Assembly (NCBI GenBank): GCA_010093605.1
Contig: MU004182.1
Span: 2,821,229-2,841,228 of the forward strand
Source: Lophium mytilinum
Lineage: Eukaryota
Reading direction: 5' to 3'
DNA length: 20,000 nt
The notes beneath the pieces are model-generated. The model had not been told where the DNA came from. It was given only the letters and a program-made list of their open reading frames with translations, and made no database searches. Both the position numbers and the translations under genes were made by a program. Positions 1 to 19,788 of the stretch are shown piece by piece. Every line of letters starts with the position of its first letter. Position 1 is the first letter of the stretch.

Positions 1-5
1 CCTAG

Positions 6-988
6 CACGATGCCCCCGGGAAAGGTTCTTACCGCACTACAGGCCTCAGACTTTGGCTTCTTCGGCGCCACATGGTGGCCCTGTGCTCCATTCCCCCAGC
101 TGCGCATCGTGACCTATCTTGTCGTCTGGCTCTTCATCTGGGACGATGAGATTGACCTCTCTGACGGAACCATGTGGAATGCCTTCAGCGCCGCTCAGCT
201 CTACCGAGATCAGACTCTCTCCTATGTACGCTATACACTGGGTATCGATGCTACCCGCCCGCTGGTTACAAATCACATCATTCTGATGTTCGCCCCCATC
301 GGGGAAGCAGTCAGAGAGCGGTACTCGCTCGCACAACGAATGATGTTTTACAACGAAATTCGCTACTTCATGGAGATGAGCGAGAGGGAACAGCGATTGC
401 GGCTCGCGGGCCCGATTCCTAATCTCGAGGAGTTCTGGCGGTATAGGCTAGGGAGTAGCGCCGTTACGGTTTGCCTTGCGCTGAACGAGTTCTCATGGGA
501 AGCGATGGATCTCCCGCTGGAATTTTATGCGGATGATGACGTGAAAAGTATCTTTAGATACACGAACACGATTATCTCGGCGACAAACGATCTCGTGTCG
601 ATTAAGAAGGAAGTGGTGAGTGGTTCGTACATTTACGATCCGAGATTCGGTCGTTAGACTCAGAATGTGGAGCTAATGGTGTTACTAGAAACGTGACGCG
701 ATTGATTCTCTCATCCCAATCATATATTCCCACGTGGGAGATGTCCAAATTGCTGTAGCTGAAGTCATTGCGTTTATAGCGGCTGAGATTGGGAACCTAG
801 ACGATGCGGCTGAGAACTTAGTCATGCGGTATGCGTCCGCCGACGACAAAACGCAGGCCCAAGTGAGAGATTTCGTGGACGGATGCAAGCACTATAGCAC
901 CGGGAACTTCATCTGGTCCCTGGAGACGGACCGATATGATGTTGATTATGCGACCGATGGGTCAGGGGATATTCTCATGACACTTTGA
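6..988 (+). CDS. Class I terpene synthase (probable sesquiterpene cyclase); 5' part probably off-window; exons ~6-615 and 689-988
   Basis: DDxxD motif (WDDEID), YRxxS effector region (YRLGSSAV), NSE/DTE triad (NDLVSIKKE) and C-terminal WxxxxxRY (WSLETDRY). Removing intron 616-688 joins ORF 10..657 to ORF 734..988 in frame (SIKKEV|KRDAIDSLIPII). TAG at 3-5 may be an acceptor of an upstream intron. Confidence 0.92.
616..688 (+). other. Spliceosomal intron of terpene synthase (73 bp)
   Basis: GTGAGT donor at 616, GCTAAT branch site at 672-677, TAG acceptor at 686-688; restores the reading frame. Confidence 0.88.
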
Positions 989-1268
989 GAGCGATAATGG
1001 AAAGAGGAGCAGGTTGGTGAAAGGACTCGAGATATTCAAGATTGCGACCTGTAAGGTGGGCTTAGGTGATTGTACGCGTTCGGAGGAACCTTATAAATAT
1101 TTTTTGAGTCTAGAAAATGTTATAATACTGCTGCACATTCTTTGTGGTCTCGGTTCTAAAGCTGCGTTCAAACTACGGTGTAGCGCTGTTGTCTATGCTG
1201 TTGTCTTTCTATGCCTTAAGAAAATAGGATTAAATATTATCACAACCTTCTCATCTAAACGTGAAGAA

Positions 1269-3181
1269 CTACTTCCTCTTAATGATTGCATCCGCGATTT
1301 TCTCGGCCAGCATGTACACAGTACTCTGTGGATGCCCTGGCACCATAAACGGAAATGCACTCGCGTCTACAACCCGAAGCCCATCTACCCCGAACACCTT
1401 TGCCTTGGAATCCACAACAGCGTTCTTATCCCCTTTCTTTCCCATCGAACAAGTCGCACCCGCATGCCAGATCTGGGTCGCGGCATTCTTCACGAACGCG
1501 AGTATCTGTGCATCCGTCTTGACTGCGTCCCCAGGCGCAACCTCGGGCCCAACTTTGATGCTTGATATGCCGTTGAAGGCTTGTCGTGCCCGCTTCAATC
1601 CAGCCACAGCAACCTCGCCGTCTGCGGGGTTTGTAAACCACCCTAGATCAATGACTGGAGGTATCGCCGAGTCGGCGCTTTGGATGGTGACGCTTCCACG
1701 AGACAATGGCGCCGTGAGACAGGCACTCAAGACACCCAACGTGCTTCCATTCGGGCCTGCAGCCGCACCAGCAACATACTCGACTTCCGGCCAATCAGCT
1801 GGAAACCAGTCAAGAGCGACTTTGGTGGCGCTGGAGAAAGTCTTGCGGAGCGTGCTGGGAATTTTCTCGAAGGAGATGTAGGCTGAGATTGAGCTCAGCG
1901 GACCCCACTGCTGCTCATAGTACTGCTTGTTGGCCTTTTCTGGGTCGAGGGCTATCTCTTGACCTCCGGAGGGCGTGCTGACGACGTTGATGATTTGGAA
2001 GTAGAGCTGGTCCCATAAATTCTGACCGACGCCGGCAAGGTTCGAGATGACGGGGATATTGTACTTGCTCAGTGTTGCTGCAGGACCGATTCCAGATACC
2101 AATAGGAGATGCGGAGAACCGAAGACACCGGCTGAGAGTATGACCTCCCTCTTAGCAGTGAGAATGTACGACTTTTCATTGGCAGTGACCTGGACACCCT
2201 TTGCACGTTTGGAGCTGAAGAGGATCCTCGTCGCGCGTGTGTGGTGGTAGACCTGCAAGCCGGCTGGCACCCCAATCTGCTCCATGTAGCTGGTTCGCGA
2301 CGATGATCGAGTCGCGTCGCACGGGTCGACCGACGTGGTGACGTACGCGCTGGTGCCAGTCAGGAGTCCACTGTTCAGGCCAAGTACACTCTGGGGCAGG
2401 CCGAGAGATCGGATGCCCTTAGCGAGCCAAGTGATGGTTGGATCAACCCATTGCGCCCACGAAACCTGGACTGGGCCTTTGAGAGAATCACTGAAGGCTG
2501 TGGGGTCGTAGATGAAAGTAGCGTTTGGTGTATTGCGTTTGGGGAAGTTAGGAGGATAAGAGAATGCCGATCTTTTGAAGAAAGGGAGGATGTTCCAGTA
2601 CGTGTAGGAAGGATCGCCCACTACATCTGCCCATTTTTGATACGCTCCATACGTTGCGCGATGGAAGGCCAAAGTATTGATCGCAGATGAACCTCCGAGA
2701 GTCTTGCCTTGCGCGTAGTGGATTTGGCGACCTCCAGCCGCTTTTTGAGGGACCGAGACATAGTCCCAATCCATCAATGAGTTTCGAGGGTAAGAGGGAG
2801 TCGTGTCGAGGAACGGCATCGCCGTCGCGTAACCCGGCACTGTGCTGAGATTGCCATTGTCCTGCTCGTAGAAGCCACCAGCCTCAATCACGGCCACGGA
2901 GGCAACTTGAGCTAGACGAGAGGCTATGGCTAGGCCAGCAGTACCGCCTCCAATGACTACAGTCATGGTATTAGTCAAGCAGGCTCAATCGACAAAAGGG
3001 ACGACTGGAAAACAGGATGGCTCATACCAACATAGTCGTAAGTACCGGCTTGTCCAAAGGCTGGCTGCGCGAGAGCCTCGCCGATGACGAGCTGCAAGAA
3101 CAGCAGTGCCGCAGCCACTTGTCCCCCCGAACGCTGTGCAGCCGTCACGATGCCCGCATATATTGGCCCCGAAAAACGCAT
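1269..3181 (-). CDS. GMC oxidoreductase (FAD-dependent, AA3-like; resembles the patE/versicolorin-B-synthase-like group), probably secreted; exons 3181-3028 and 2956-1269, 613 aa
   Basis: Spliced N-terminus gives YDYVVIGGGTAG (Rossmann GxGxxG). Also GKTLGGSSAIN, EVILSAGVFGSPHLL, WHAGATCSMG, LRVVDAS and PGHPQSTVYMLAEKIA (His/His catalytic pair). Hydrophobic N-terminal segment (AAALLFLQLVIG). Confidence 0.93.
2957..3027 (-). other. Spliceosomal intron of GMC oxidoreductase (71 bp, phase 1)
   Basis: GTATGA donor at 3027, ACTAAT branch-like site, TAG acceptor ending at 2957; joins YDYV to VIGGG. Confidence 0.88.
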
Positions 3182-3754
3182 TGCTTTCTCGATCGCCCGA
3201 CGACGAATTGGCGGAAAATCGGGTAAAGAGGTAAGAAAAGCGCCAGCCAGGTGCTAAGAAATGAGGGCCGAGGACACAGCTCGAGCGATGGTACTCGGTA
3301 CCTGCATACCAGCAATCAAACCCATCACGTGAAGAAGGAAGCGCAAGGTTGCGTAGGAGTGCAGGAGTGGCGTCCCTGCGATGCCGGACGAGATGAAGAT
3401 AGTCTAGCGTGCTTGGTTTGCTGTTGGAATGGTGAAGGGACGGCACGGGGCGAGCTCTCCTTGCAACCCGACACCCCGATGTTCTAGGGCTCTGCGGGTG
3501 AACCAAGTCCGTGGATCTGCGTGGGCATATCCCCTGTTAAACTCGGCACGGCATAGCAGCTACCTCCTCGGTCTTCCCGACGTCGAAAATCCTAACTAGG
3601 CATTATTCTCCTGTAAATTTATGCCCCGTCTTCTAGCTATACTATAGTAAGGTAGATAAGTAGTAATATAGTAGTAGAAGATAGAATAGTTATAAAAGTA
3701 AAAATTATATTTACTAAAAGAAAGAAAAAGTAGAAAAGAATAGCCTTAATTATA

Positions 3755-5799
3755 GAGTACTACTAAATATATACTCTATATTTACTTAGTATATACTTTT
3801 TTTCTACTCTATATATACTCTTTTTATATCTAATCTTCTAATTAGTTTAAAGAGCTTAAAGAAAGCTCTAGTACTTAATTCTTATATATATCTATATAAA
3901 ATAAGAAGGCTATATAGCCTTACTATTTTATTATATATTTTTACTATTTTTATAAAGCTATATATATAGGCTAGCTATATATAAGGCCTTATATAAGGCT
4001 ATATATAAGGCTATAGTTATAATAAGGCTATATAGTATATCTATTTTACTATATATACTTTCTATTTTCTATATATATAGGCTATTATATTACTATATAT
4101 ATATCTATATATCTAAAAGTATACTAAAATAGTTAAATTCTTATCTTATTATAGCCTCTCTATATTAAACCTAGCCCCCCTATATTACTACTACGCCTTC
4201 TTAGCTATTTTAATCTATTAACCCCTCTATATACTAATTATATAATACTATCTAATATTAAAGCTCTTTAATAGAAAGTAGTATAGATACTATCTAAGGC
4301 TAAAAAGTTAACTAAGGCTAAGAAGCTAGCTAAGGCTTAGAATAAGCGCTATTATAATACTGCGTAGCCCCTTTCTCTAGTACTATCTTCTTTTTAAATA
4401 CTTTATTCTTTATACTAGGTAGCTAGCTATACTTTTTAAATATAGTAGTAGATATAGTAGTAGATATAGGTATAAATATAGTAGTAGAAAGAGGCCTAGA
4501 TATTACTATATAGTTAAACTTAGGTAGATTAGTAAGTAAATTATTAAATTCTATAATAGCTAGTATAGTAGCTAACTAAGAAGTACTCTAAGTAATAGAA
4601 GCTAGATAGGGGGCTATAAAAATAGGCGGTTCTAGTAGTAGAACTATTAGCGTATATTCTATAGATATATTTATAGGTCTAGCTACTATATCTATATTTA
4701 TAGTAATTTTAAATCTTAATAGCTTTTACTATATATTATTATATATATAATAGCCTCTCCTTATAATAGTAGGCTAGCCGCGCTAGTACTTAATAATAGT
4801 AGAATTCTCTATATCCTTAAAAGGCCTAAAAGAAATAGCTAGCTAATATTCTTCTAGCTAAATAAACTACTAATAGTAATCTATTTCTTCTAGTTATATA
4901 TAGAGCACTAGATCTAGCTAATTTATAAGCGCTTAGTATAGAGAATTATATAGTTTATATATATATAGAATACTATAGATAGACTTAAATATTTAAGTAT
5001 AATTAAGTAGGTTATATTTATTTAATTTAGCCTTTTAGAGCTACTTCTTAAGAAGAATAAGCGCCTATAATATTACCTTTTAATATAGGTTATAGAATTT
5101 AGGTTCTTTAATATTATATAGAGTATAGGTATAATATCTAGCTATTTTATCTCTAAACTTAGACCTAGAGTTAAGAATAAGATTCTATATATTAAGAAGA
5201 ATATTAAATAGATAGCTAGTTAATATTTAAAGAAAGCTCTTAAGTAGGCTATATAAGCCCTTATTTTATAATATAACTCTATAAGAAATTAAATTAGTAT
5301 AATATATCTCTACTACTTTTTTATTTCTTAGTTATTCTTTAAGCTATACTCTTATTCTCTTTAGTACTACTTATTTAGTATATAAGTAGACCCTATATAA
5401 AGTTTAGGCATTTAATTTAAATATTTTAGTATTAAGAAAAATTACTTATATAGTACTAAAGTACTATACCTTATAAATATAGTAGGTAGCCTAATTCTAT
5501 CTATATAGCTACTACTTATTCTCTATATATATTACTAGATTAGGGCGCTTTTTATAGTTATTAAGTAGCTTTTTCTAAGCCTTATTAAATTAAGCTATAA
5601 CTTCTAGCTTTATTATAGTAGTCTAATAGGTAAGAAACTACTCTTTTTTCTTCTATTTCTTCTTCTAAATAGCTTTCTTCTCTTTATTTAATATAGGTAT
5701 AGGTAGCGCGCTATCTATAGTATATATAGGTTCCTCCTTATATATTTTAGCTAGTTTAGTAATAATATTTTTTTTAATATACTATATATAGAAAAGGCG
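3755..5799 (-). mobile_element. RIP-inactivated Mutator-like (MULE) DNA transposon, 3' half
   Basis: Minus strand from 5799 reads RLF-Y-I-*-Y-IKKN (de-RIP: RLFCIWHIEKN, MULE CxWH motif). Near 5260 it reads NKGLYSLLKSFL (NEGSHSLLKSFL, catalytic Glu). Near 4960-5000 it reads YT*IFKSIYSILYIY (CTQTFESIYGIPCMH, SWIM-like), followed by RGRP and TRREPSRFE-like segments. The left end at GAGTACTACT (3755) is a guess. Confidence 0.8.
3950..4095. repeat. Short degenerate AGGCTATATATA-like repeats, probably subterminal repeats of the MULE
   Basis: Multiple aggcta(ta)n units clustered between the presumed element end and the transposase C-terminus. Confidence 0.45.
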
Positions 5800-6222
5800 T
5801 GTAACTATAAGCTATTATTAATATAGTATATTTTTTAGAGCTTATTTTTTATCTATTAAGAAAATATATAGAATAAGAGAATAGTGCTTAAAGAGCTTAA
5901 AGAGCTATAGTACTACATAGTTATAGTTTATCTTCTTCTCTTTTAGTAGAAAATAATAGGTAATTTTAAAGTTATTACTAGTATATATAACGCTAGTAAT
6001 ATATAAAAAGAGTATACTAAATTATTAGGGCTTAAGGTTAGAACGTTAGAATTGTTAGATTAAATAGTATTAATATTAACAAAAGATAAATATAAGAGAG
6101 GAAGAGGTTTCTAGGATAAATATTATAATAACCTAAAGGGCGGAGTAATATTTACCCGTTCTATAGAGCCTCTATTACGTAACCTCTAGTTACGTGTTAT
6201 GCGTAATTATATGGCTATAATA
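5800..6222 (-). repeat. 3' LTR of the Gypsy element (~423 bp; alternative left boundary 5986)
   Basis: On the minus strand it starts TATTATAGCC (RIPed TGT(C/T)ACAGCC) right after the polypurine tract and ends GTTACA at 5800, exactly where MULE coding sequence begins. Confidence 0.7.
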
Positions 6223-6224
6223 CG

Positions 6225-6236
6225 TCTCCCCCCTCT
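6225..6236 (-). other. Polypurine tract (PPT) of the Gypsy element
   Basis: AGAGGGGGGAGA on the minus strand, 2 nt upstream of the LTR start. Confidence 0.75.
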
Positions 6237-6438
6237 AAAGAAGCCCCCTAATTAAAGCTTTTATAAGAGAGAGTCCTTTCTATACTAGAGTATCTATACC
6301 CGCTTAAATATCTATTAAATAAAGTGCCGATTTATGCTTTAGCCGTAAGTAAATAAAGAAAATAAATTAATTTATAGAGGATTACTTATCCTTTCTATTT
6401 TAGTGCAGCCTACTATAGCCTTACTATTTTAGTGCAGT

Positions 6439-6501
6439 AGTATTACTATGCGTAGTATTACTATGCGCAGTATTACTATACATAGTATTACTATGCGCAG
6501 T
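6439..6501. repeat. 15-bp tandem repeat x4 (AGTATTACTATGCGC) in the Gypsy 3' UTR
   Basis: Units start at 6439, 6454, 6469 and 6484 and differ only by C>T/G>A changes. Confidence 0.9.
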
Positions 6502-6679
6502 CTTATAAAGAGTAGCCTTATTTATTTAAACTAGGGCCGGCTATAATAGAGCTATAAGAAGCTATATAGCCTTTATAGCTACTATTCTACTACTAGGTAC
6601 TTATAATAATCTATACTATTATATTATATAATTATTGCGCACGTCCGCAGTTAGGCCTCCTTAATAAATTAATTTAACC

Positions 6680-9600
6680 GCCGGTCTAGTAATTAAATTA
6701 TATAGCTTTTGCAGTATTAGTTATATAGAGGTTTATAGCGGCAAGAATAGTAGCTAAGGTCGGCTTCTAGTCTAATAGTGGTCTAAATAAGGAATAAGGG
6801 CCTAGTTTCTTTAGGTATTAGTAGTGGAAGTCTACTATAAGGTATAGATAACTATTAGCGCAATTATAGTTATTCTATTAGGGTTTATTATTCTATCTAA
6901 TAAACTTAATCTTATATTATAGCATGCCTCTCTTACTAGTACTTAGATTAAGGCGTCTTCTATCTAGGCGGGAATTAATAACTTTCTTAGCGTCGCCTTT
7001 CTAGTATATAGGCGTAGTTTAAATAGATAGAGGCTTAGGATTATATTATCCTTTTATAGGAATAGCGTTAGCTAGGTAAAGAAGCTAAGAATAGAATACT
7101 AGGTATAAATTCTCTATACCTTTAGGTAAGTTAAGCTTATAGGTACTACTATTTTTATAGCTCTTAAGGATTCTAAAGGGGCCTAGCTTTTTAAAGTTAA
7201 GTTTCTTATTTAGGCGGTTTATTTTAATAAACCGTCTATTAAGTATAACTTAATTACCTAGATAATATATATAAGCTAGGCGTTGTCCTGCATTAGTATA
7301 TTTCTTTTACTTAGCCTAGGCCCATTTAATTTCTATATAGAGGAACGCGCGTAACTTATCTATTTTATTAATAAATTTATCCGCAAGTTTTATAAGATAA
7401 ACTATTAGTGCGTTTACGTTTATATTTATATTTACGTCCTTAGATAATCGCGCGGCTAGCGCGGTGCCTATACTAGAAATATAGCCCTTAGTAGCTATAA
7501 AGGGCGCCACTCTAGTAGAGGCGTTCTTAGATAAGTTAGCCTTAAATTTAGCAACCGCGAGGAAGTTAACCTAGTTATTTTGCTAGTAGTTAATATACGC
7601 TTAAAGGTACTACTTTAGGCCTATATTAGTAATTTCCATTTAACTATCTATTTCTAGATAAAAGATAGTAGAAAGTTTTAGTTTTATTCTAATATATTTA
7701 TATAGGTAAGACTAGAAAGTTAAGATAAATTATAATTCTTAGTTAGAAATAATAGACTATAGGTATTCTTTAGTGCACTATATCTATTTAAGGAAGGCTT
7801 AGGCTACTTTCTTAGCGTCTATTATTACTATTAGAATAAACTTACGCATCTTAGAAAGCCTATTAACAACTACTATAATATATTAATAGTCTTGTCTAAA
7901 TTATATATAGATTAGTAGGAGTCTAATAAAATTAACTATAAGATTAGTCTAATACCGTTTAGAAATTAAAAGCAGCTTAAGAAAGCCTTATTTTACTTTA
8001 CGCGCGTGCTTAATCTAATTACATAGCTAATAGGCTTTAATGTAATAATTAATATTAGATATTATTTATAGCTAAAAGTAGTATATTAAAATATAGTTAT
8101 AAGTAGATATAGTTCTACTGTAGCCGACTAGCGGAGGTTTATATAGATTTTTAATAATAGCTAATTAGAGTTCCTCTTTAGTAGGAATATATAATTAGTT
8201 CTTTTAAATAAAAATAAGGCTGTTATAGATTATATAGTTATAGAGTTTAAGCTTAACGCCGTAATTTTTAACTATATTAGTAGGCAGGCGGCGTAGCTTA
8301 GCTCTAATAGCGTCTTTAATAGTGTTAGTAATAGTATTATTAATAAGGGCCTCTTATATGTAATCTATAATATCTTACTCTATAGCACTATTAGTAGGGC
8401 TATTCTTTAACTCCCCCTATCTATTTAGTAACTTCTATAGTTTATTATTAAGGTTACTCTAAGACTCCCCTTAATTAAGTTCTACTTTACTAAGGTTATA
8501 TATTATTGCTGCAAGGGAGACTATATTATAAGTTACGCCGTTAGTTATAATATAAGCTAGTTTAATAGCGTAATGTATTTCTAGTTTAAGATTATAGTCT
8601 TTTAAGATAGTCTATTACTAAACCTTATAGCGCTTATTATTTTTATCTAGTATATTACCTAGGCGCCTAGTTAGTAAATTAGCCTTACTATTATCCTTAC
8701 CTAGCCTATATATAATCCGGAAGTTAAATTTAAAGAGAAATTTAGCCTATCTAGCTTATTATTAGTTAAGCTGCTTAGTCTCTATAAAGTATTATAGGGT
8801 CTAGTAATCTAAAAGAACTTTAATAGAATTACTATACCTATAGCTAGTAAGTTCTATACGCTATTTCTTAAAGGCGCATATAATTGCTAGAAGTTCTTTA
8901 TTATAGATTTAATAGTTAAGCTAGGCTGCGCTTATCTAATAAGATATAAAGGTAACTAGATAGAGGACGCCGTCTTATATTTAGGATAGTATAGTAGCTA
9001 TAATAGTATTAGATATATTATATTCTACCCACGTCTCTAGGTCTAGATTAAAGTAGGCTATCTAAGGAGCGTTAATAAACGCTTATTTTATTTATTTAAA
9101 GGAGAAGTCCTTTAAGCTACCTTCTTACTATAGAAAGGTAAACTACTTATAGACCTCTACCCTAGTAAGTCTTATAAGGGGTCCTGCGATATTAGAGTAG
9201 GCAATAATAAATTACTAGTAGAAGTTATAGAAGCCTAGAAAAGCTTATATATTACAGAGGTTCCGTAGTTATAGCTAGTTAATAACTATATTAACCTTAG
9301 CTAGATCTATTTTAAGGCTATTAACGCTAATAATAATGCCTAGATACTTAACCTCTTATTTATAGAATTTATATTTAGTAATATTAAGGAATAGGCCTAC
9401 CTTATAGAGTTACTAGAGGACCTTCTTAATGTGGCCTACGTGCTCCTCTAATGTCTCGCTAAAAATAAGAATATTATTAAGATAAGCTGTATAGAAATTA
9501 TCTAAGTATTCTAAGAGGATATTATTAATAAAGGCTTAAAACGTTGCTAGGGCATTATATAAGCTAAAGGGTAGGATAGTAAACTTAAATAGGCTGTATC

Positions 9601-11005
9601 TTATAAGAAACGCTGTGTACTTTTTATTGCCTTCTTATATTCTAATAGTGTTAAAAGTAGTAATAATATTAAACTTTATATAGTATTAAGCATACTTTAG
9701 AAGTGTAAGAGTATTCTTTATAGCGGGAGGTATATTACGGGCTTTAATAGTAACTATATTAAGTCTATAGTAGTTAATATAGATGTGGAGGCCTCCCCTA
9801 GGTTTATAAATAATAATAACTAGAGCAGTATACTAACTATTACTTTTTTTAATATAGCCTTTACTATATATTTTATTAATAAATATTTTAATAACTAGTA
9901 TCTTATCCTATAAGAGTCTATAAACTTTACGCGCTAGTACCTTTATCCCGGGTTTAATATTAATATAGTAGTTAATATTAGTATTATCTTTTACTTTATA
10001 ACGCAGTAGTAGCTTATTAGCTTCTTTTAGGTTCTATATATTAAGGAAGCCGTAATATTCTATAGGTACTAATGCTTTAAGTTTATTGCGGGTTATTAGT
10101 TTACGCTCTATCTTCTTAAAGAACTTCCGTTAGTTATCTTTTAATATAGTGTAGAGACTAATAGCTGCTAGGTTATTAGTAAAATTAGCTAAACCTAAGA
10201 TAATATTACTAGATTTATACAGGCGTCTATTAGCGCGCGCTTAAGCTTTAGCTTTCTTATTAGTAAGTATAAGCTTAAAGTGTTTAGGCTATATATAGAT
10301 AGTATCTTTCTCTAGTAACTACTAGAAGTTATATAAATACTCTTTACTAGATACTATATTAATATTAAGTACTTTAAAAGCAGTAAGCTAAGCATTAAGT
10401 TTCTACTTAAATAGGCGCTTGCTAGTGCGGGTAACAGGGTCTTTAAACTAGATATAGACTAGTTTATAATTAACTAGATATTAAGAATAGTAGTAGTTTA
10501 AATCTAGCTGCATTATTTAGGTGCTAAACTTTATATAGGCGTCGTGTATTATAAGCTAGCCTATGCCTAAAATAATATTATAGCCCTTAAGGTTGTAGAT
10601 TAGAGCCTAGAACTTATTATAGTGGCCTTTAATCTATATAGTAACTTTAGCTGCTTTATTAATAACTAACGTAGAACTATTTAGTAGTTTAATATTATAT
10701 AGAGTAGCTTTATAGATATTAAGCTTATACTATTTTATAAAGCTTATAGAAATAAATATAAAGCCGCTATATCTAGAATCTATAAAAATAGTTAATTTAA
10801 CTATTCTAGTTAAAGTAATAATCTTATAGTTAAAGTCTATTTATTTACTAGAGAGAGAAGTAAGACTAATAGCGCATGTAGATAGCTTAATATTAGGTGG
10901 TTTTAGAGGAGGTAGCTTAAGTTCTTAAATGCGTATAAGAACTTAAGCTAGCGTATCTTCTAACTATCTCTAACAACAACTTTTATTAGAGATTACGCGT
11001 TTTCT
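6680..11005 (-). pseudogene. pol: Gypsy pol (protease, reverse transcriptase, RNase H, integrase, chromodomain), many RIP stops
   Basis: Protease FIDSR (=FVDSG, Asp at 10778-10780). RT LPFSLYNALATF* (=LPFGLCNAPATFQ) and YLNN (=YLDD, 9473-9484). RNase H NY*IYNKELLAI. Integrase IISN* (=SDR) and GPF motif ending at 7183. Chromodomain ...VDFHY*YLKKLGP (~6800-6980). The protease, RT, GPF and chromodomain checkpoints all share one frame. Confidence 0.92.
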
Positions 11006-13629
11006 AACTTATTAAAATAGATAGCTTTATTATTATCTTAGTCTTAGTTATACTTATATTTATACTTATACTAGCACTCCTAATTACTACTATAGTTAAA
11101 TGCATTAAGTTTAATACTATTAATGCTAGCGGTAGTAAGGCGCTTATTACGCTAAGCCTCTAATATAGTCTTTCTAGCTATAGCGCATTTAGAGTTGCTA
11201 GCATAGTAGTTCTTCTTAAAGTAGCTAAAGTAATATTCTTTCTTACTAAGATGTAAGCAAATATATAGTAGGACGCTTAGTAATAAGACTATAGTAGTCT
11301 TTTTAACTATAATACAGTTATTAGTCTTAGTAATAGACTACTCTTATTAGACGCAGTTTAAATTATAATAGCTGTTCTACGCATATACATTATTAAGGCG
11401 GCGTGCTAAAATCTATGCAGTAAGAAGTTTTTTATTAGCTTATTTTTCGCGTTAAATATAATAATAGTCCTTATATAGAATATTATCTTTTATCTAGTAC
11501 TAGGTTAATAATCTAAAGTTAATATATTTAGCGAAATCTATGCGTAGTGTTTTCTTAAGGTAATAGTATTAAGTTGCAAGGCTGTTATTAATTTTACTGT
11601 ACTTAAGCCCGTTAAGAACTATATTAAGGCGTTATAGAAAGTTAGATATCTTTTTATTATATTACTATTTTATGCCCTTACTATTAAGCTAGTTAAGAAG
11701 GTAATTATAATAAACTACGTTACTCTTTTAGAATATAGCGTCTAGGTCTTAGATAAGTTCCTTAAGTAATTAGTACGGGTTAGTAGATATAAGAAAACTA
11801 TAGTCTTCTATAACCTTATATGCACGCCCCTTATAGTAGCTAACAGCAAGCTAAATTTAGGTTATAGTTATAGGGTAAGTCTATTAGTCTACTTAGACTA
11901 AGTAGATTAGGTAGTTCTTCTATACTATATATACTATAGCCCCTAATTTAAAATTCTATAGGTATATATACTTAGGGCGAGGGCCTTATTATTATCTATA
12001 TTAAGGATAGATAGGTCTAAATACCTATAGCTAAGTAAAACCGCCTAGTTAGCTTAGGTTTAGGTTATCTCTACCTCTACCTCCTATATTAGTAAAGTAT
12101 TAGCCTAGAATGCAATTATATTAGAAGTTATCTAGGTTAATAGTATATAGTCCTACTAGTGGCAAAGAAGAGGCATTATTAGTAGAGTTATAATTAGTAG
12201 GCTATTTATTAGGTTATTCTACTAATATCTTCTACTAGAGTTAAGCTTTAAGCTAGGTAATTTATATTAAGGCTTATTAGTATTTAGCTTCTAGATTATT
12301 AAGCTAGAGGGTTTAGGCTTAGAAGTTAGCGTGCTTTTTATTATATAGATAACGGACGCGGGCTAACTCTATTTATTTAGACTTAAGTTTATAGTTAAGA
12401 GTATAGACTTATATCTAGAGCTTAGTAAGTTTACTATTAGTAAGTAAATATTTCTTATTTAGCTCTTTAACGGTAGTATTAGCTATATCCTATTCTTAGG
12501 TGGCGATATTTATCCTATACTTATAGTTATTACTATCTTAGTAAGCTAGTATAATGCAGTTCTACTATTATTCTAGTATAAGTTAAATGTCTTTAATAAG
12601 GTCTTATAGACCTTATAGTTTATATTATTAGTAGACGCCTTCTCTATAGCGCATCTTAAAGATAGAGCCGTTAGCGCGCTATATAATTATAAGATATAAC
12701 CGCTAATAGTTCTCTACGCATATTATAGTATAGTGCCTACTACTCTATTCTATGCCCGCTACTTACTAGGCTAGGTTAGAAGTATTAAGTCTAGTAATAG
12801 ATTTAATATAGGTAGATTAGTATTATAATAGAGATATATTAGGTAAGGAAATACTATAAATAGGTAGTATTCTTAGATATTTAGAGTTGCGGGACTAATA
12901 TAGCTTAGAAACGGTATTATAGTACGCCGTGGCGTTAGAAGTATTAATAGTAACGCCTTAGTAAGCGGTTTTAAGCTTATTAACTTTATTATCCGCGTTA
13001 TTACTAAACTAATATTCCTTCTCTTAACGGTCGTGTTTATCGGCTAAATTAAAGTTAGAGGAGGAGTCCTTATTATAAGTAGTAGTTATATTATTAAGGC
13101 CGGCAGTTATATTATTAAGGCCTGCTATTATATTCTTAAGTTCTTTAGATAAATTAAAGTTGCCTAGTATATAGCTACTAACGCAGGAAAGCGGAAGTAT
13201 AGTCTTCTCTATAGTTAGAGAAGCTAGACTAACTAGTAGAGGCTTGCCTATAGTACTAAACTTATTCTAATAATATTAGAGGTTAGCTAGTATTACTAGA
13301 GGGACTAGTCTAATAGATAGAGCTAATTAAGAAGTAGTAGCTAATATCTGCGACTAGAATTAAGTTACTTAAAAGGGTAGATTTGCTAGCTAAATAAAAG
13401 AAGGCTGCAGGCCGTAATTAATCTATATTATATTATTATTATTATCTTCTATAAGAAGGTGCTATAGGTTTAGGGCGCCTTCTTAATATAATATAATGCG
13501 GCGGGGGTTAATAGAAATACTATTAGCGTTACTAAATAGGCGTCTAGTAGTAGAGCGTCTACTAGAGACAGAGTTACTAAACTATAGAGCTTTAGCGCGG
13601 TTAAAAGTATAGCGGTTAGGGTTAGCTAT
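10993..13629 (-). pseudogene. gag: Gypsy gag (~878 codons), many RIP stops
   Basis: Zinc knuckle YFSYFKKNYYASNSKC (=CFGCFEKNHHAGDSEC) near 11185-11235 and a capsid-like segment at 11650-11990. Ends LENA* at 10993. The putative RIPed start (ATA=ATG) at 13629 is in the same frame as the capsid segment, the knuckle and the stop. Confidence 0.7.
10999..11005 (-). promoter_or_regulatory. Putative -1 ribosomal frameshift site between gag and pol
   Basis: AGAAAAC (possibly GGAAAAC originally) one codon before the gag stop; the pol frame is -1 relative to gag by coordinate arithmetic. Confidence 0.6.
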
Positions 13630-13843
13630 ATAAAAAGGTAGAAAAAGTTAATATAGAAGAAAGAAAACTTAAAGAGGCGAGGTATTAAATTTATGTGCAA
13701 GAACCTATTAAATTTAGATTATTTACTACGCGCTCTTAAAGGCGTAGAAGGTTTAAGAGGGTAGTACTAGTAGCACTAGTTACGCCTAGCTGCGGAACTG
13801 CCTAGGGGGTTATAGTAAATAATAAGTTTAGTATTTATAAGGT

Positions 13844-13912
13844 ATAGGTAGTATATAGAAAATAGGTAGTATATAGAAAATAGGTAGTATATAGAAAATA
13901 GGTAGTATATAG
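13844..13912. repeat. 18-bp perfect tandem repeat x3.8 (ATAGGTAGTATATAGAAA)
   Basis: Units start at 13844, 13862, 13880 and 13898. Confidence 0.92.
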
Positions 13913-13950
13913 GTACTTATTCTATAATACTAGGTATATACTTAGGCTTA

Positions 13951-14084
13951 CTATTATTAATACTAAGCTTTCCGGGCGTTAGTCTCTATATAGTAATAGT
14001 AATTAATTAGTAACGCTAGGCGCGCGCACACGCTATTATTAATACTAAGCTTTCCGGGCATTAGTCTCTATATAGTAATAGTAA
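13951..14084. repeat. 52-bp direct repeat pair with a 30-bp spacer
   Basis: 13951-14002 and 14033-14084 (CTATTATTAATACTAAGCTTTCCGGGC[G/A]TTAGTCTCTATATAGTAATAGTAA), one mismatch. Confidence 0.92.
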
Positions 14085-14329
14085 AGTAGATAGAAGAAAA
14101 AGTTATAGAGCTATTAAAGTAATAGATAAGAATTTATAAGGACTTTCTAGGGTACTACTACTACCCCTCTATTATAGGGGCTTATTATAAGCGCTGCTAT
14201 AGTTATAAGGTCTACTATCTAGCTTTATATATAATAGCTGGATTACTTTATTAGGGGCCCGCGGCGCTGCTAATGGGTATACACAATACTACTGCCACTA
14301 GTAATAATACTATTAATGGTAGTAATACT

Positions 14330-15480
14330 AGTAGTAATAGAAATAATAGAATTTAATAGTAATTACTAGCTAATATTAAATATACTAATAAAACTAAGCT
14401 ATACTAAGCTAAAACTAGTAAAATTAGCTTATTTTATATAGCTACTAGCTTAGTAATATATATAAATAGTAGAAAAGTTAATAGTAATAATAAGCTAATA
14501 CTAAGCTTACTAATAAAACTATACTATAATAAGTAACTACTAGTAGTAATACTTAGAAAAAGAAAAAGATTAACTAGTAGTAATACTAGTAGTAATAGAA
14601 AAGTAAATAGTAGTAATAGAAAAGTAAATAGTAGTAATAGAAAAGTAAATAGTAGTAATAGAAATAATAAGATTTAATAGTAATAAGAAGTTATTATTAA
14701 GTATACTAATAAACCTAGGCTATATTAAGTTATAACTACTAGAAATAGTTTATTTTATATAGCTACTAGCATAGTAATAGTACTAAATAATAATAAAAGT
14801 ACTTAGTAGTAGAAAAATTAAACGGTAGTAATAGAAATACTAGGATATAATAATAATTACTAGCTAATATTATATATACTAGTAAAACTAAGCTATAATA
14901 AGTAGTAACTAGTATAATAAGCTTATAATATATAGATACTAGCTTAGTAATATACCTAAATAGTAAAAAAAGTACTAAATAATAGAAAAAGTAACTAGTA
15001 GTAATACTGGTAGTAATAGATATAATAAGATATACTTACTAATACTAACTATTACTAAGCTTACTAGTAGTACTAAGCCATAATAAGTTATAACTAGTAG
15101 ATTTATCTTATAATATATAGCTACTAGCCTAATAATAATACTAAATAGTAATAAAATAGAAAATAGTAGTAAAAGTAACTAGTAGTAATAGAAATAATAA
15201 GATATACTTATAAATACTAACTAATACTAAGTCTAATAGTAAGACTAATCTATAGAAAGTAATAAATAGTAGAGTTTAGCTATAATATATAGCTATTTAC
15301 TTAGTAGTAATACTTAATATAAATAGAAGTAAAAGTAACTAGTAGTAATATAAATAATAAAATATACTTATACTATATACCTAATACTAAGTCTACTAGT
15401 AATACTTACCTATACTAAGTAGTAGTAGAATAATTTTATAATATAAAGCTAGTAGTAAGAAATAATAATAAAATATAGAT
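14330..15480. repeat. Degenerate tandem array of ~160-185-bp units (6 clear units plus 1 partial)
   Basis: Units start (A/G)GTAGTAATAGAAATAATAAGA-like at 14330, 14651, 14824, 15009, 15181 and 15341. Each carries ACTAAG/CTATA blocks and a TATATAGCTACTAGC-like block. Confidence 0.85.
14588..14664. repeat. 21-bp perfect tandem repeat x3.7 (AGTAGTAATAGAAAAGTAAAT) nested in the large array
   Basis: Units start at 14588, 14609, 14630 and 14651 (partial). Confidence 0.9.
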
Positions 15481-15831
15481 ATATAATATAAATAACTACT
15501 TAGTAATAATATTAGTCTATATTTTAACTATTAATAGCTTATATCTTATTAATTAGCGCCTCTAAGTAAAATATATATACTAGATATAAAGTTAATAGTA
15601 CTCTAAACTCTAAAAATATATAGTTAGTAGTTAGTAAATAGAAATAGAATATATAAGTATAATAGCTTAAATTAAAAATCTATTTAAACTATATACTAGT
15701 TTTTTTTTCTTTCTTATAAAAACTTCTAGAAAAGTACTCTCTAACGCCTTAATAGTAATATAACCCTAAACTAAACCTTTAACTATATAGAATAAACTCT
15801 AATACTAAGTAGTTTTTAGAACTACTATATA

Positions 15832-18800
15832 TTAAACCTTTATCTTACTATAAATATAGTCTAGATTTAATTCTAGTATTAAATCTAAGCCTCTAATATA
15901 AGAAGTATCTTCTTTAATAGTAAAGATAGTTCTAGTAAAGTCTTCTACTAAGTAGTAAGTATCTTTATTACCTTCTAATAACTTAAAGCTATATAAATCT
16001 CTACCTTCTAGATTTCTAGCTAAATAAGTAGCTAATAGAATAATATCTTTATATATGCATATAATAGGCTCTATTCTATTAGCTAGGCATACTTCTAAAG
16101 GTAGGAAGCATTCTAAGCAGGTATTAGTATTATTTAATAAGCCTAAGTTAGATATTTCTTCTTTAATAGGTAGAATAGCTTTAAATATTAGTTTACTTTT
16201 AGAATTAGGGCAGTTATATATACTATGCCATTTATAATTACTATCTCTATTATTAAAGCAGTAAAAGCAGATTTCTTTTAAAGTATCTAGCCGTTCTAAT
16301 ATACTAATAATATAGCTATTATCTTCTTCTTTTTCTAGTTCTTCTAAGAATAAAAGCTTAGAACTAGACTTAGATTTAGTAGTAATATTCTCTTCTTCTT
16401 CTCTTTCTATATCTTCTAGAAAGCCTAGCTTTTTAGTAGGGCTAGTTAAAGTAGTACTAGTATTTTTTTTAGCTTTAGTATTAATAGAAAGCTTACTAGA
16501 ATAAGTATTAGGTACTCTACTAGTATTAGATAAGATAAACTCTTTATCTTTTCTAATAATACTACTAGGATAAGTATTAGGTACTATACTACTACTAGGT
16601 AATATAGTATCTTTATTTCTTTTAGTAATACTAGAAGAATAAGTATTAGATACTCTAGTAGAAGTAGGGCTATTACTAGGTAATATAGGTAGATTATTAC
16701 TAGAAGTAGAAGAAGAGTTATTAGAACTTATTTCTATATACTTTTTATCTTTACTTTTAAGTATATTTCTAGTAGTTCTACTAATAGATATATTATTACT
16801 AGAAGAAGAATCTTTTCTAGCTTTATCTTTAGATTTACTTTTCTTTTTTAAACTAGTAGGTATATTAATACTAGTATTATTAGAAGAACTATCTTCTATT
16901 TCTATATTTTTAAGCTTAGCTTTCTTAGTTATAGTAGAACTAGTAGGATTATTTATACTAGATTTCTGCCGTCTATGCTTTCTACTAGAGCTACTAGCTA
17001 TAGAATTAGTATTTTTATCTACTAGCTTAATAGGAGCTAAACTAGAAATAAAAGTAATATTAAAAGGGTTACCTTCTAGCTCTATTAGATTAAAGTAAGT
17101 TAAAAATCTAATACTAGCTAAAAAGAACTCTTCTTCTAAAGGCTTAGTAGTATTTCTAGCTAAGCTAAAAGGGCGGCCGTAGTTTCTATTACTAGTAATA
17201 GTATTTCTATTAGCTTATATATCTTCTATAGTAATAGTATCTTTAAAAGTATCTTTATTAATAGTTTTAGTACCTATTTTATACTTTAAAATATAATCTA
17301 TTAACTGCCTATAGTTACTAATATTAATTCCTACTTTAAAGAAGTTCTTAGTTTCTTTAACTAGTAGATTAGAGATAGAACTAGATTTAATAATACTATT
17401 ATTATACTCTAGTAAATAAGGACTAATAGTAGTAATTCCTAAGGCTTTAATAGATAGAAAGTTATAAAAAGGTAGTACTACTAGTAGATATAGCTTAAGT
17501 ATATTACTTAGCTTAGGCCCGAAGTATCTAGTACTTTTAGAACCTATATTAGTAGTATTTTGCATTTTATGCCACCTACTATTAAGTCTTATTAATCCTA
17601 ATCTAGGTTCTATAGTTAAGTCTCTTAAACCGGTTTCTATAGTATTTTTATAAGTAATTAATACTACTTCTTCTCCTCTTAAAGGGGAACCGCTAGTTAA
17701 ATAAATAGCTAGTGCTAAATACTCTATAAATCTTTTTCTAGCTTTTAGAAAAGTAGTAGTATTTTTAGTATTAAAAGTATACTCTAAAGTAGAACTTATA
17801 TCTTTAATATACTTCTTACTAAAAAAAGTTTCTCTATCTAGTACTTTATCTTCTAAAAGAGTAGTATATTTACTTAGATTATAATAAGAGCTAGTTTCTA
17901 TATAGTCTATAAAGTAATAGTCTTTTTTACTTTCTAAAGGTATATCTTTAAGAGAGTTAAAATCTATATTATATTCTCTTTTATTAATATCTACTAGTAG
18001 TTCTTTATAGAGTATATCCTCTAGAATATTTAAAATATACTTAAAGAACTTAGGTAGCTTAGTAATATTAAGAGTTTTATTATCTATAGCTATATTATCT
18101 TTATCTATTTCTACTATTTTACTATTAGTAGTATGCATAATAGATAGCTTTTTAATAAGTTTTCTATAGTATAAAATCTCTACAAAGCAATTTCTAGATT
18201 TAGTCTCTAATAGCTTAGACTTATTCTTATAGAATTCTACTTCTAAATTAAAGTTTCTACTTTTAGAATTATTATATATATCTTTTAAGAATAAAAGTCT
18301 AAAAGTATAAATTAAGTAGCTAGTATATTGCTGTATATTATCTTCTTTCTTAAATAGCTTAGTAGTAGAATCTATACTACTTAGAATAAGAAAAGTTATA
18401 ATAGGGCTATTAAATAAACTATTTTCTTCTAAAGAATGCTGCTTAATATCTTGCGCTAGAAGATTAATAGCTAGTAGTACTATAATATCCTCTATAATAA
18501 AGGTATCTTCTTCTTTTTCTATTAAGTCTATAATAGTTTTAATATTATTTACTACTCCTTTACTTAAGATAGGTTGTATATCTAAAGTATTATTAGAACT
18601 AGTATCTCTTACTAAATATAAGTATACTATATAAGTAATAAGATTAGTAAAATAGCTATAATAACGTCTTTTACTATTAGGCTGTAGTACTTTAAATTTA
18701 TTAAGAGATTTTTCTTTAGAGTCTTTATTTTCTACTACTAAGTCTAATAGAAATAAACTACTAAACTTTTCTATAATAGGTTCGCACTCTATTAAAGCTA

Positions 18801-19788
18801 GTATAGTAACTTTATATACTTCTAAAAGAAGCTTAATAGTAGAATTATTATTAGGGTTATTCTTATTAGGTTTTTCTACTAAAGGTAAATATAGAGTAAG
18901 ATCTTTATTCTCTATATATTTATTAAACTTAGTCTTCTCTAAGAATAAAGATATATTCTTAGAACTTAAGTTTTCTTTAATAGTACTATTAAGAATAAGA
19001 ATCTTTTCTTTTCTATAAAGATTAGCTAAGCTAGTTAAACTATCTTTATTATTACTAGTAGGTTTATTATTAATATCTTTAATAGCAAACCACTTAATAT
19101 ATCTAGGGCTAGTAAAGAAGGTTTGTAAAATATAGTTCTCTTTATAATAAGGCTTAAAGAAGGTAGTTCTACTAGCACTACTATCTCCTTTTAAATTATG
19201 TATAGTACTAAAGTGGGTTCTAAGAACTTTATAACTAGGCGTTGCAAAACTATTACATTTAAGGCAGATATAACCTAGAGTCTCTTCTAAGTCTTTAAAC
19301 CTATATTTATAGAAAGTAGGTATAGTAGGTTTACTATAATCTATAGTAATATCTAAGTCTTTAATACTATTAAGTAGTTCTTTTAATAAAGGGTCTAAAA
19401 TAGCTTTACTAAGAGTATTACTATCTTTACTACTATCTTTTAAAGTATTACTATATAGCTTTTTAAAGTGGCTAGTAATACTAGTAGAATCTTTAAAAAA
19501 TATAGCTACTTTACAGGTTTTACATATAATAATCTTAAAGTCCTTACTATAAATAAAGTTATTAGGTAATTCTAACACTTTAGTATACTTAGAACTACTA
19601 GTAATAGAATTACTAGTATTATTAGAACTAGTACTAGAACTAGAACTATCTTCTATAGAATCTTTATTAGCTTTCTTAGAAGTAGTAGAAGAGCAAATAA
19701 TAATAGGGTTATAGCTACTATTAAAACTAGAACTAGAACTAGTAAGAGAAGAAATACTAGTAGTAGATAACTCTATAGGAAACAACAT
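15832..19788 (-). pseudogene. C2H2/DUF3505(OrsD)-like zinc finger + tyrosine-recombinase-like + Cys-rich C-terminal protein (TLH-related, no helicase domain), ~1318 codons with a single internal TAA at 17215-17217
   Basis: The 857-aa ORF continues in the same frame past the TAA for ~460 codons to TAA at 15832. Motifs are IICKTCKVAI..SHFKKL(Y), CLKC..THFSTIH, LTSGSPLRGEE, RWHK, SNYRQ, EDI*ANRNT..RNYGR, FFLASIRFLTYF, CFYC..WHSIYNC and CLECFLPLEVC..CIYKDII. Confidence 0.8.

Follow-up and report, generated by a model that had tools for sequence, protein, structure and literature searches.

The 20,000-nucleotide stretch of Lophium mytilinum DNA analyzed here (GenBank assembly GCA_010093605.1, contig MU004182.1, positions 2,821,229 to 2,841,228 of the forward strand; referred to below as the window) raises the question of what kind of gene lies at its AT-rich end: a tyrosine recombinase of a mobile family of its own, a gene of the TLH (telomere-linked RecQ helicase) family from which the helicase is missing, or a relic. 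Judged by homology, the gene is a member of the TLH family without a helicase and not a separate family. Its "TLH domain" is confidently predicted, from a structural model, to have the fold of tyrosine recombinases and type IB topoisomerases, and R704-K741-R827-(R861)-Y870 are put forward as the candidate active-site set of that domain. TLH proteins are described as consisting of two C2H2 motifs, the TLH domain, and RecQ motifs (10.1101/2024.02.27.582403, citing Rehmeyer et al. 2009; 10.1101/2022.03.07.483234), the TLH domain being a conserved stretch of some 250 residues that lies upstream of the helicase (10.1101/2024.02.27.582403). Citations in 10.1101/2024.02.27.582403, 10.1101/2022.03.07.483234, and PMC4522978 date the cataloguing of these genes at the ends of fungal chromosomes back to the late 1990s; in the available text of the first two, the TLH domain is given no function.

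The gene has one reading frame of 1318 codons (coordinates of all features are listed in Table 1). Its single internal stop is the TAA at 17215-17217 (codon 858), 12 codons before Tyr870. Stops number 2 in the gene frame and 45-317 in each of the remaining five. Its open runs measure 858 and 460 codons; 500 dinucleotide-preserving shuffles gave a mean of 54.6 and at most 100, which rules out a chance open reading frame. Outside the gene, the longest open run in the remaining 12.3 kb of the AT-rich block is at most 89 codons. This 16-kb block reaches from about 3540 to the window end and has a G+C content of 20-31% (about 53% in window bases 1-3500), with dinucleotide ratios of the type left by repeat-induced point mutation (RIP): TpA/ApT, 1.7-1.9; (CpA+TpG)/(ApC+GpT), 0.10-0.27. 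The open reading frame of the gene has the same composition as its flanks (TpA/ApT, 1.9; (CpA+TpG)/(ApC+GpT), 0.11-0.14), and its codon usage shuns CpA and TpG (all 42 Pro codons are CCT, and 106 of the 114 Thr codons are ACT). Codons that a single RIP step turns into stops number 13 of 1318 (Gln, 10; Trp, 3), and the depletion of these stop-prone codons may let the frame survive RIP. An internal contrast is provided by the Gypsy/Ty3-type relic in the window, with 65 in-frame stops in 881 codons against 1 in 1318 for the gene. The gene is a clear case of a long frame surviving within RIP-mutated DNA.

Six first relatives were retrieved with a word-indexed search; all are rich in Asn, Lys, Ile, and Ser, and one, named RecQ by its source, carries a DEAD helicase. 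A profile made from the gene and these six matched 2895 cluster representatives of the database at E<=1e-3; 1017 of them reached E<=1e-10 and 129 reached E<=1e-30. Homology to TLH relatives spans about 900 residues, running through the TLH domain into helicase-bearing relatives. The OrsD family (PF12013) is reported in 20 of 24 relatives scanned and matches the window protein with E 1.2e-6 (29.3 bits; cut-off, 26.6), with no other credible Pfam match in the protein. Helicase presence was judged with five family helicase queries and was detected in 74 of the 174 collected family proteins; the section of the family profile that covers the helicase hits BLM, RecQ5, and RecQ1, with E values as low as 5.7e-61. 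Longer fused forms of the family, of 2311-5000 residues, were searched for and none was found. The relative at locus L013 lies next to a telomere: about 19 CCCTAA repeats stand at the contig end (1-116), and the family open reading frame (1548-2720) starts 1.4 kb inside and reads away from the end.

The helicase itself is missing. Pfam reports neither DEAD nor Helicase_C in the window protein, and nothing at all in its C-terminal 460 residues. With 12 relatives as queries, tblastn gives two blocks, both in one frame: one holds the N-terminal 860 or so residues, at about 19590-16950, the other the Cys module, at 16320-15967. A helicase concealed in another frame or elsewhere in the window was looked for in this way and not found, every frame being free of helicase matches. 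In the alignment downstream of the Tyr, the window protein and its relative P0004 have a gap that starts with the pre-helicase motif and takes in the zinc-binding Cys cluster of RecQ; they align again ahead of the Cys module. The distance from the Tyr to the first Cys of that module is 304 residues in the window protein, 258 in P0004, and 160 in L001a (a copy at metagenome locus L001), against 506-568 in helicase-bearing P0164, P0009, and P0006; the RecQ core that is absent measures roughly 450-600 residues in relatives.

The remaining parts of the protein are in place. Finger 1 reads C-x2-C-x12-H-x4-Y, its last ligand being Tyr (TAT) where relatives have His; finger 2 is intact. The middle region (residues 199-554) has no Pfam family over the curated cut-off and may be a DNA-binding or core-binding part. 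Within the linker, a 69-bp tandem repeat (2.4 copies, 16494-16661) encodes a repeated PNTY..SSI unit of about 23 residues, by which the linker appears to grow through duplication. In the Cys module, C1174, H1188, C1193, and P1230 are invariant among 21 sequences, and C1177, C1224, C1227, C1234, and C1244 are kept in at least 90% of them; no match of this module to a known fold was found.

A preliminary description of the window, made from the DNA letters, had claimed one frame of about 1318 codons past the stop, two N-terminal C2H2-type fingers, a Ser/Thr/Lys linker followed by a Cys-rich module, kinship to TLH genes without a helicase, and no sign of a Starship captain. The frame, the linker (about 237 residues), and the conserved Cys module were recovered as described; the fingers and the proposed OrsD kinship are confirmed by the Pfam match; the TLH relationship without helicase agrees with the profile, Pfam, and tblastn searches. 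The captain family DUF3435 has no Pfam match in the window protein, 24 relatives, or 28 domain members, and GCR1_C has none in the window protein or 24 relatives. Of the two origins proposed, a distinct mobile family and an internally deleted TLH gene, the separate family does not hold: the gene belongs to a helicase-less lineage nested in helicase-bearing clades, and its deletion is shared with P0004 and L001a.

The TLH domain was modeled on an alignment of window residues 540-930 (a 391-residue segment with X at the stop) and 68 relatives of 16-45% identity. Arg, Lys, Arg, and Tyr, which the preliminary description had placed in tyrosine-recombinase order with codon positions that agree with the window translation, turned out to be the only invariant columns in the 69 sequences: R165, K202, R288, and Y331 of the model, that is, R704, K741, R827, and Y870 of the protein. 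Arg II is followed by His in 39 of 69 sequences and by Gln in 19 (Gln828 in the window); at box III, 52 sequences have His and 15 have Arg (Arg861 in the window). The AlphaFold2 model has a mean predicted local distance difference test (pLDDT) score of 88.7 and a predicted template modeling (pTM) score of 0.88. Each of the 14 best Foldseek matches of this model is an Xer, a Cre, or an integrase. When 48,161 PDB representatives were searched independently of Foldseek, every one of the first 26 rows was a tyrosine recombinase, a type IB topoisomerase, or Ndc10; scores were 10.8 for an archaeal Xer (root-mean-square deviation 3.0, 164 residues aligned), 9.9 for XerH, 9.3 for XerD, 9.2 for XerA, 8.6 for Cre, 8.5 for the integron integrase, and 8.3 for Leishmania TopIB. 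In the model, R165 opens a short helix (166-169) after a long helix; K202 lies between strands 194-200 and 211-216; R288 lies within a helix; Y331 follows the last short helix. Active-site residues of Cre and Xer occupy matching secondary-structure contexts. Cre 131-307 aligns structurally to model residues 17-303, and the alignment offset would put Cre R292 on model R288. The nearest named ESM-Atlas clusters for P0004 residues 455-835 are Phage_integrase, NDC10_II, Integrase_2, and ResT-TelK, at values (0.83-0.86) below the 0.9 trust line and hence a lead only.

The window copy keeps every residue that is invariant or nearly so in the recombinase domain and in the Cys module. It has two defects, the TAA at codon 858 and the Tyr that stands for the last His of finger 1. 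Codon 858 is Gln in P0004 and P0005 and Leu in P0006; because relatives read Gln and His at the two defective positions, RIP-type C-to-T changes at CpA would be the simplest origin of both the stop (CAA to TAA) and the lost ligand (CAY to TAT). The gene call of P0002 ends at the same codon, and its near-identical cluster mates P0005 (Gln) and P0164 (1796 residues) run through. The Gln at codon 858 is thus a recurrent CAA-to-TAA casualty, since P0002 stops where its cluster mates do not. Programmed read-through at the TAA was considered and rejected, since the cluster mates of P0002 read Gln there. From these comparisons, the window copy probably represents a lineage whose members otherwise stay open, and was disabled recently.

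That lineage has other members. P0004 (1173 residues, uninterrupted) has the same helicase-less layout as the window protein. A further helicase-less copy, L001a (4452-7832 of locus L001, which measures 14 kb at 19-38% G+C), is 44% identical to the window protein. All three share the layout and two junction motifs between linker and Cys module, L[TS]SP..L.F and F[LI]E[ED][LF]EKE (LTSPTKKLGF and FLEELEKE in the window protein), though they are just 38-46% identical; the motifs are absent from the other 172 of the 174 collected proteins. A deletion unique to the window copy, which the preliminary description had named as a result that would speak against its reading, was not found; because P0004 and L001a, at 38-44% identity, share layout and junction motifs, the absence of the helicase is not a one-off deletion. 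L001a is interrupted by three in-frame stops, which hit the Arg I codon, the aromatic residue that precedes the Lys, and the position following Arg II; its second zinc site is degraded.

In a 51-row tree, the window protein pairs with P0004 (Shimodaira-Hasegawa-like approximate likelihood-ratio test (SH-aLRT) support 92), helicase-bearing P0164 is nearest to the pair (98), and all are nested among helicase-bearing rows; when L001a is added, P0164, the window protein, and L001a form an unresolved trio with P0004 just outside (97 for the four). Both trees carry composition-heterogeneity warnings. A single loss of the helicase is favored because of the shared junction, and is not proven by the tree. 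A second clade of eight rows (P0024, P0028, P0029, P0030, P0034, P0039, P0040, P0050; support 99) includes no row with a helicase (5 lack it, and 3 are too short for a decision); P0028, P0029, P0034, P0039, and P0050 end in RGRP-type AT-hooks after an acidic Ser-rich tail, in place of the Cys module. P0015 is a third helicase-less case.

The window copy, with its stop before the Tyr and its lost zinc ligand, and L001a, with three stops and a degraded Cys module, could be taken for decaying, internally deleted relics, whose helicase-less state is damage and which have no activity of their own; a linker of unconstrained low-complexity sequence with a tandem duplication, and the nesting of the lineage inside helicase-bearing clades, would fit. 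We regard this as improbable. Layout and junction motifs persist at the low identities given above, P0004 is uninterrupted, the invariant and near-invariant residues of both modules are all kept, and the stop count is far from that of the neighboring Gypsy relic.

With moderate confidence, we read the gene as a helicase-less TLH member whose core, the zinc fingers and an enzyme of recombinase fold, would move or recombine its own unit. In intact relatives, the zinc fingers and the middle region would bind DNA; the Tyr would attack a phosphodiester, form a 3'-phosphotyrosyl link, and rejoin strands, as in Cre, Xer, and Crypton enzymes; and this rejoining would move or recombine the gene's own unit within the AT-rich and repeat-laden DNA of chromosome ends. 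Selection would keep the zinc-finger and recombinase core, the helicase being accessory. Helicase-less lineages would act alone or use a co-resident helicase-bearing relative, compare the side-by-side copies in L001, and the depletion of stop-prone Gln and Trp codons would let the frame survive in RIP-active genomes. A transposase role of the gene is a reasonable inference.

Several results pull the other way. The canonical HxxR His is absent family-wide (His in just 6 of 69 sequences; Ser in the window); the caution voiced in the preliminary description, that the usual His positions read Ser and Arg, thus describes a trait of the family, in which box III is Arg in 15 sequences. Recombinase families of Pfam (e.g., PF00589) match 0 of 28 domain members at E<=10, integrase entries of PHROGs and NCBIfam match 0 of 28 members, a profile search of PDB sequences with the TLH domain gives 0 matches at E<=10, and hhalign of the family profile against the single sequences of Cre and lambda Int returns probabilities of 0.15% and 0.10%. 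The Tyr-bearing part of the window copy is not made unless there is read-through. P0164 stands among the helicase-less rows once L001a is added, and the three helicase-less rows as one clade are not rejected by the approximately unbiased (AU) test (p 0.146). No TTAGGG telomere repeat occurs in the 20-kb window, whose end the gene abuts. Persistence of the helicase-less form is also no proof of autonomous action.

The missing HxxR His, and the lack of a sequence match to active recombinase families, would also agree with a module that binds DNA without catalysis, like that of Ndc10/Cbf2 or the Crypton-derived DUF3504 proteins. Type IB topoisomerases likewise are not known to have an HxxR His. 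The best structural matches of the domain are active enzymes, and its sole invariant columns in 69 diverse sequences are R, K, R, and Y, which makes a purely binding role very improbable. Domesticated forms, by contrast, have lost catalytic residues (Kojima and Jurka 2011, PMC3212892).

Whether the unit moves was examined in its copies and flanks. P0164-type copies in six metagenome records are 86-99.8% identical in DNA and occur in two unrelated upstream contexts, {L001b, L002} and {L003, L004}; similarity between the two contexts starts about 10 bp before the ATG, a boundary that may mark a conserved 5' end of the unit. Tandem arrays of a period similar to that of the window array flank family copies in L001 (2661-3398, 7821-8461) and L003 (3416-6386, 7867-9753). 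The window array has no sequence similarity to the arrays of L001 and L003, and no DNA similarity was found between the flanks of the window gene and those of relatives. The mobility evidence from P0164-type contexts and arrays is weak.

The same setting suits a host-serving chromosome-end gene, whose domain would catalyze or guide recombination of subtelomeric repeats (end repair, telomerase-independent maintenance) and whose family would spread, helicase present or not, through the usual recombination and duplication of subtelomeres. TLH genes are treated as subtelomeric and possibly involved in telomere maintenance (10.1101/2024.02.27.582403; 10.1101/721753); relative L013 is telomere-adjacent; copies sit among tandem arrays, which favor recombination; and no terminal repeats or target duplications were found, the ends of an element not being definable within the window. 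This explanation is nevertheless rather unlikely, as at least two lineages do without the helicase, the activity supposed to maintain telomeres, copies decay freely as selfish repeats do (L001a, L001b, L011), P0164-type copies stand in two unrelated contexts with similarity beginning just before the ATG, and the family is split into many diverged lineages (2895 representatives).

A unit that moves or recombines itself by its own recombinase-fold enzyme, as preferred here, could be extended to the whole TLH family. The family would then be a selfish-element superfamily in which the zinc-finger and recombinase module is autonomous and RecQ an add-on, and in which the helicase-less lineages (that of the window and the AT-hook clade) are free-standing and suited to AT-rich or chromosome-end DNA, with a composition that RIP hardly breaks. 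This extension is possible and is offered tentatively.

If the predicted fold holds, the recombinase fold and its invariant set offer a testable mechanism for the spread of TLH units or the reshuffling of chromosome ends, and the retained recombinase-like domain suggests a way in which TLH genes of chromosome ends might move or recombine. That some lineages lack a helicase points to the recombinase part, and not the helicase, as the piece that selection keeps, which would change the presumed role of TLH genes. The long open frame within RIP-mutated DNA bears on how repeats escape fungal genome defense.

Table 1 Features of the window, with positions counted from its first letter; (-), reverse strand; (.), strand unassigned.
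Feature	Position	Strand	Remarks
Whole reading frame	15832..19788	(-)	1318 codons; Met1 ATG 19788-19786; terminal TAA 15832-15834
OrsD-type double C2H2 zinc finger	19195..19560	(-)	Residues 77-198; Pfam PF12013
Family-conserved middle region	18127..19194	(-)	Residues 199-554; aligns across relatives
"TLH domain", predicted tyrosine-recombinase/topoisomerase-IB fold	17083..18126	(-)	Residues 555-902
Arg704 (SGSPLRGEE), candidate catalytic Arg I	17677..17679	(-)	Invariant, 69/69
Lys741 (RWHK), candidate hairpin Lys	17566..17568	(-)	Invariant, 69/69
Arg827 (NYRQ), candidate catalytic Arg II, followed by Gln828	17308..17310	(-)	Invariant, 69/69
Arg861, box III position	17206..17208	(-)	Arg in window copy
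Tyr870 (NYGR), candidate nucleophile	17179..17181	(-)	Invariant, 69/69
Low-complexity S/T/K/N linker	16372..17082	(-)	Residues 903-1139, about 237 residues; occupies the place of the RecQ core of relatives
C-terminal helical module, two presumed zinc sites (CCHC and CCCC)	15835..16371	(-)	Common to helicase-bearing TLH proteins
Tandem-repeat array, period about 160-185 bp	14299..15543	(.)	Directly downstream of the gene
Gypsy/Ty3-type pol relic	7082..9724 (about)	(-)	RVT_1 E 1.4e-14, RNase H, Tf2 SH3 (Pfam)

Other observations concern the surroundings of the gene and of its relatives. A GMC oxidoreductase gene (1269-3536, reverse strand; Pfam GMC_oxred_N, E 2e-30, and GMC_oxred_C, E 2e-37) lies in the 53% G+C part of the window and adjoins the AT-rich block; its open frames of 571 and 183 residues are split by a single stop, which presumably reflects an intron or a break in the gene model. 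Sequencing runs containing the stretch are two contig-type DNA runs of one study, with no RNA run listed. At locus L001, a helicase-bearing P0164-type copy, L001b (10427-14067), lies about 2.6 kb downstream of L001a in the same orientation, head-to-tail; it is damaged by a frameshift and an ATG-to-ATA change. At locus L010, a helicase-bearing copy (1770-6008, about 20-27% G+C) lies beside a distant family member (11725-14229; 20% identity) in DNA of 46-60% G+C. P0014, P0025, and P0031 (FYMINK 0.21-0.26) are sisters of the AT-biased P0006 and P0017 (0.40-0.43); because proteins of ordinary composition are sisters of AT-biased ones, the composition shift has recurred within the family. P0012, P0016, P0095, P0121, and P0141 were considered as helicase-less and rejected, as their gene calls are truncated inside the helicase.

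No paper tying TLH, Tlh1/2, or the TLH domain to tyrosine recombinases or Cryptons was found in open full texts, subscription journals and database annotations lying outside that search. The word "helicase" is absent from the text of Kojima and Jurka 2011 (PMC3212892), and helicase, telomer, OrsD, and zinc are all absent from that of the 2026 Glomhopper paper (PMC13465315).

Among known systems, the TLH genes are closest (Magnaporthe TLH1, Schizosaccharomyces pombe Tlh1/2, Ustilago UTASa, and those of Fusarium, Botrytis, and Zymoseptoria): the window gene has the same OrsD pair, TLH domain, and Cys module, and differs in having no RecQ helicase, in the lack of a telomere repeat within the window, and in that the TLH domain is here assigned a recombinase fold on the basis of the model. 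The telomeric RecQ genes of Zymoseptoria, reported as 13 copies of low G+C (34.7%) that are yet open (PMC4522978), share with the window gene an AT-rich and nevertheless open frame. From the tyrosine recombinases and type IB topoisomerases (Xer, Cre, lambda Int, Flp; the vaccinia and human topoisomerases), the TLH domain is set apart by the lack of detectable sequence similarity, by large insertions in the modeled fold, of which 164 of about 347 residues align, and by its place in a protein of 1300-1900 residues with zinc fingers, usually a helicase, and the Cys module. Subtelomeric proteins with an OrsD match only, without interpretation in the available text, have been listed for Fusarium and Pyrenochaeta, e.g., a 1,463-residue Pyrenochaeta protein (10.1101/721753); these, known by their Pfam match only, may be of the same helicase-less kind. 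Cryptons and Starship captains are likewise single large open reading frames with a recombinase fold, found in repeat-rich fungal DNA as multi-copy, diverged lineages; the TLH-type gene differs from them in having neither DUF3435 nor GCR1_C and in being tied to telomeres or to an AT-rich block.

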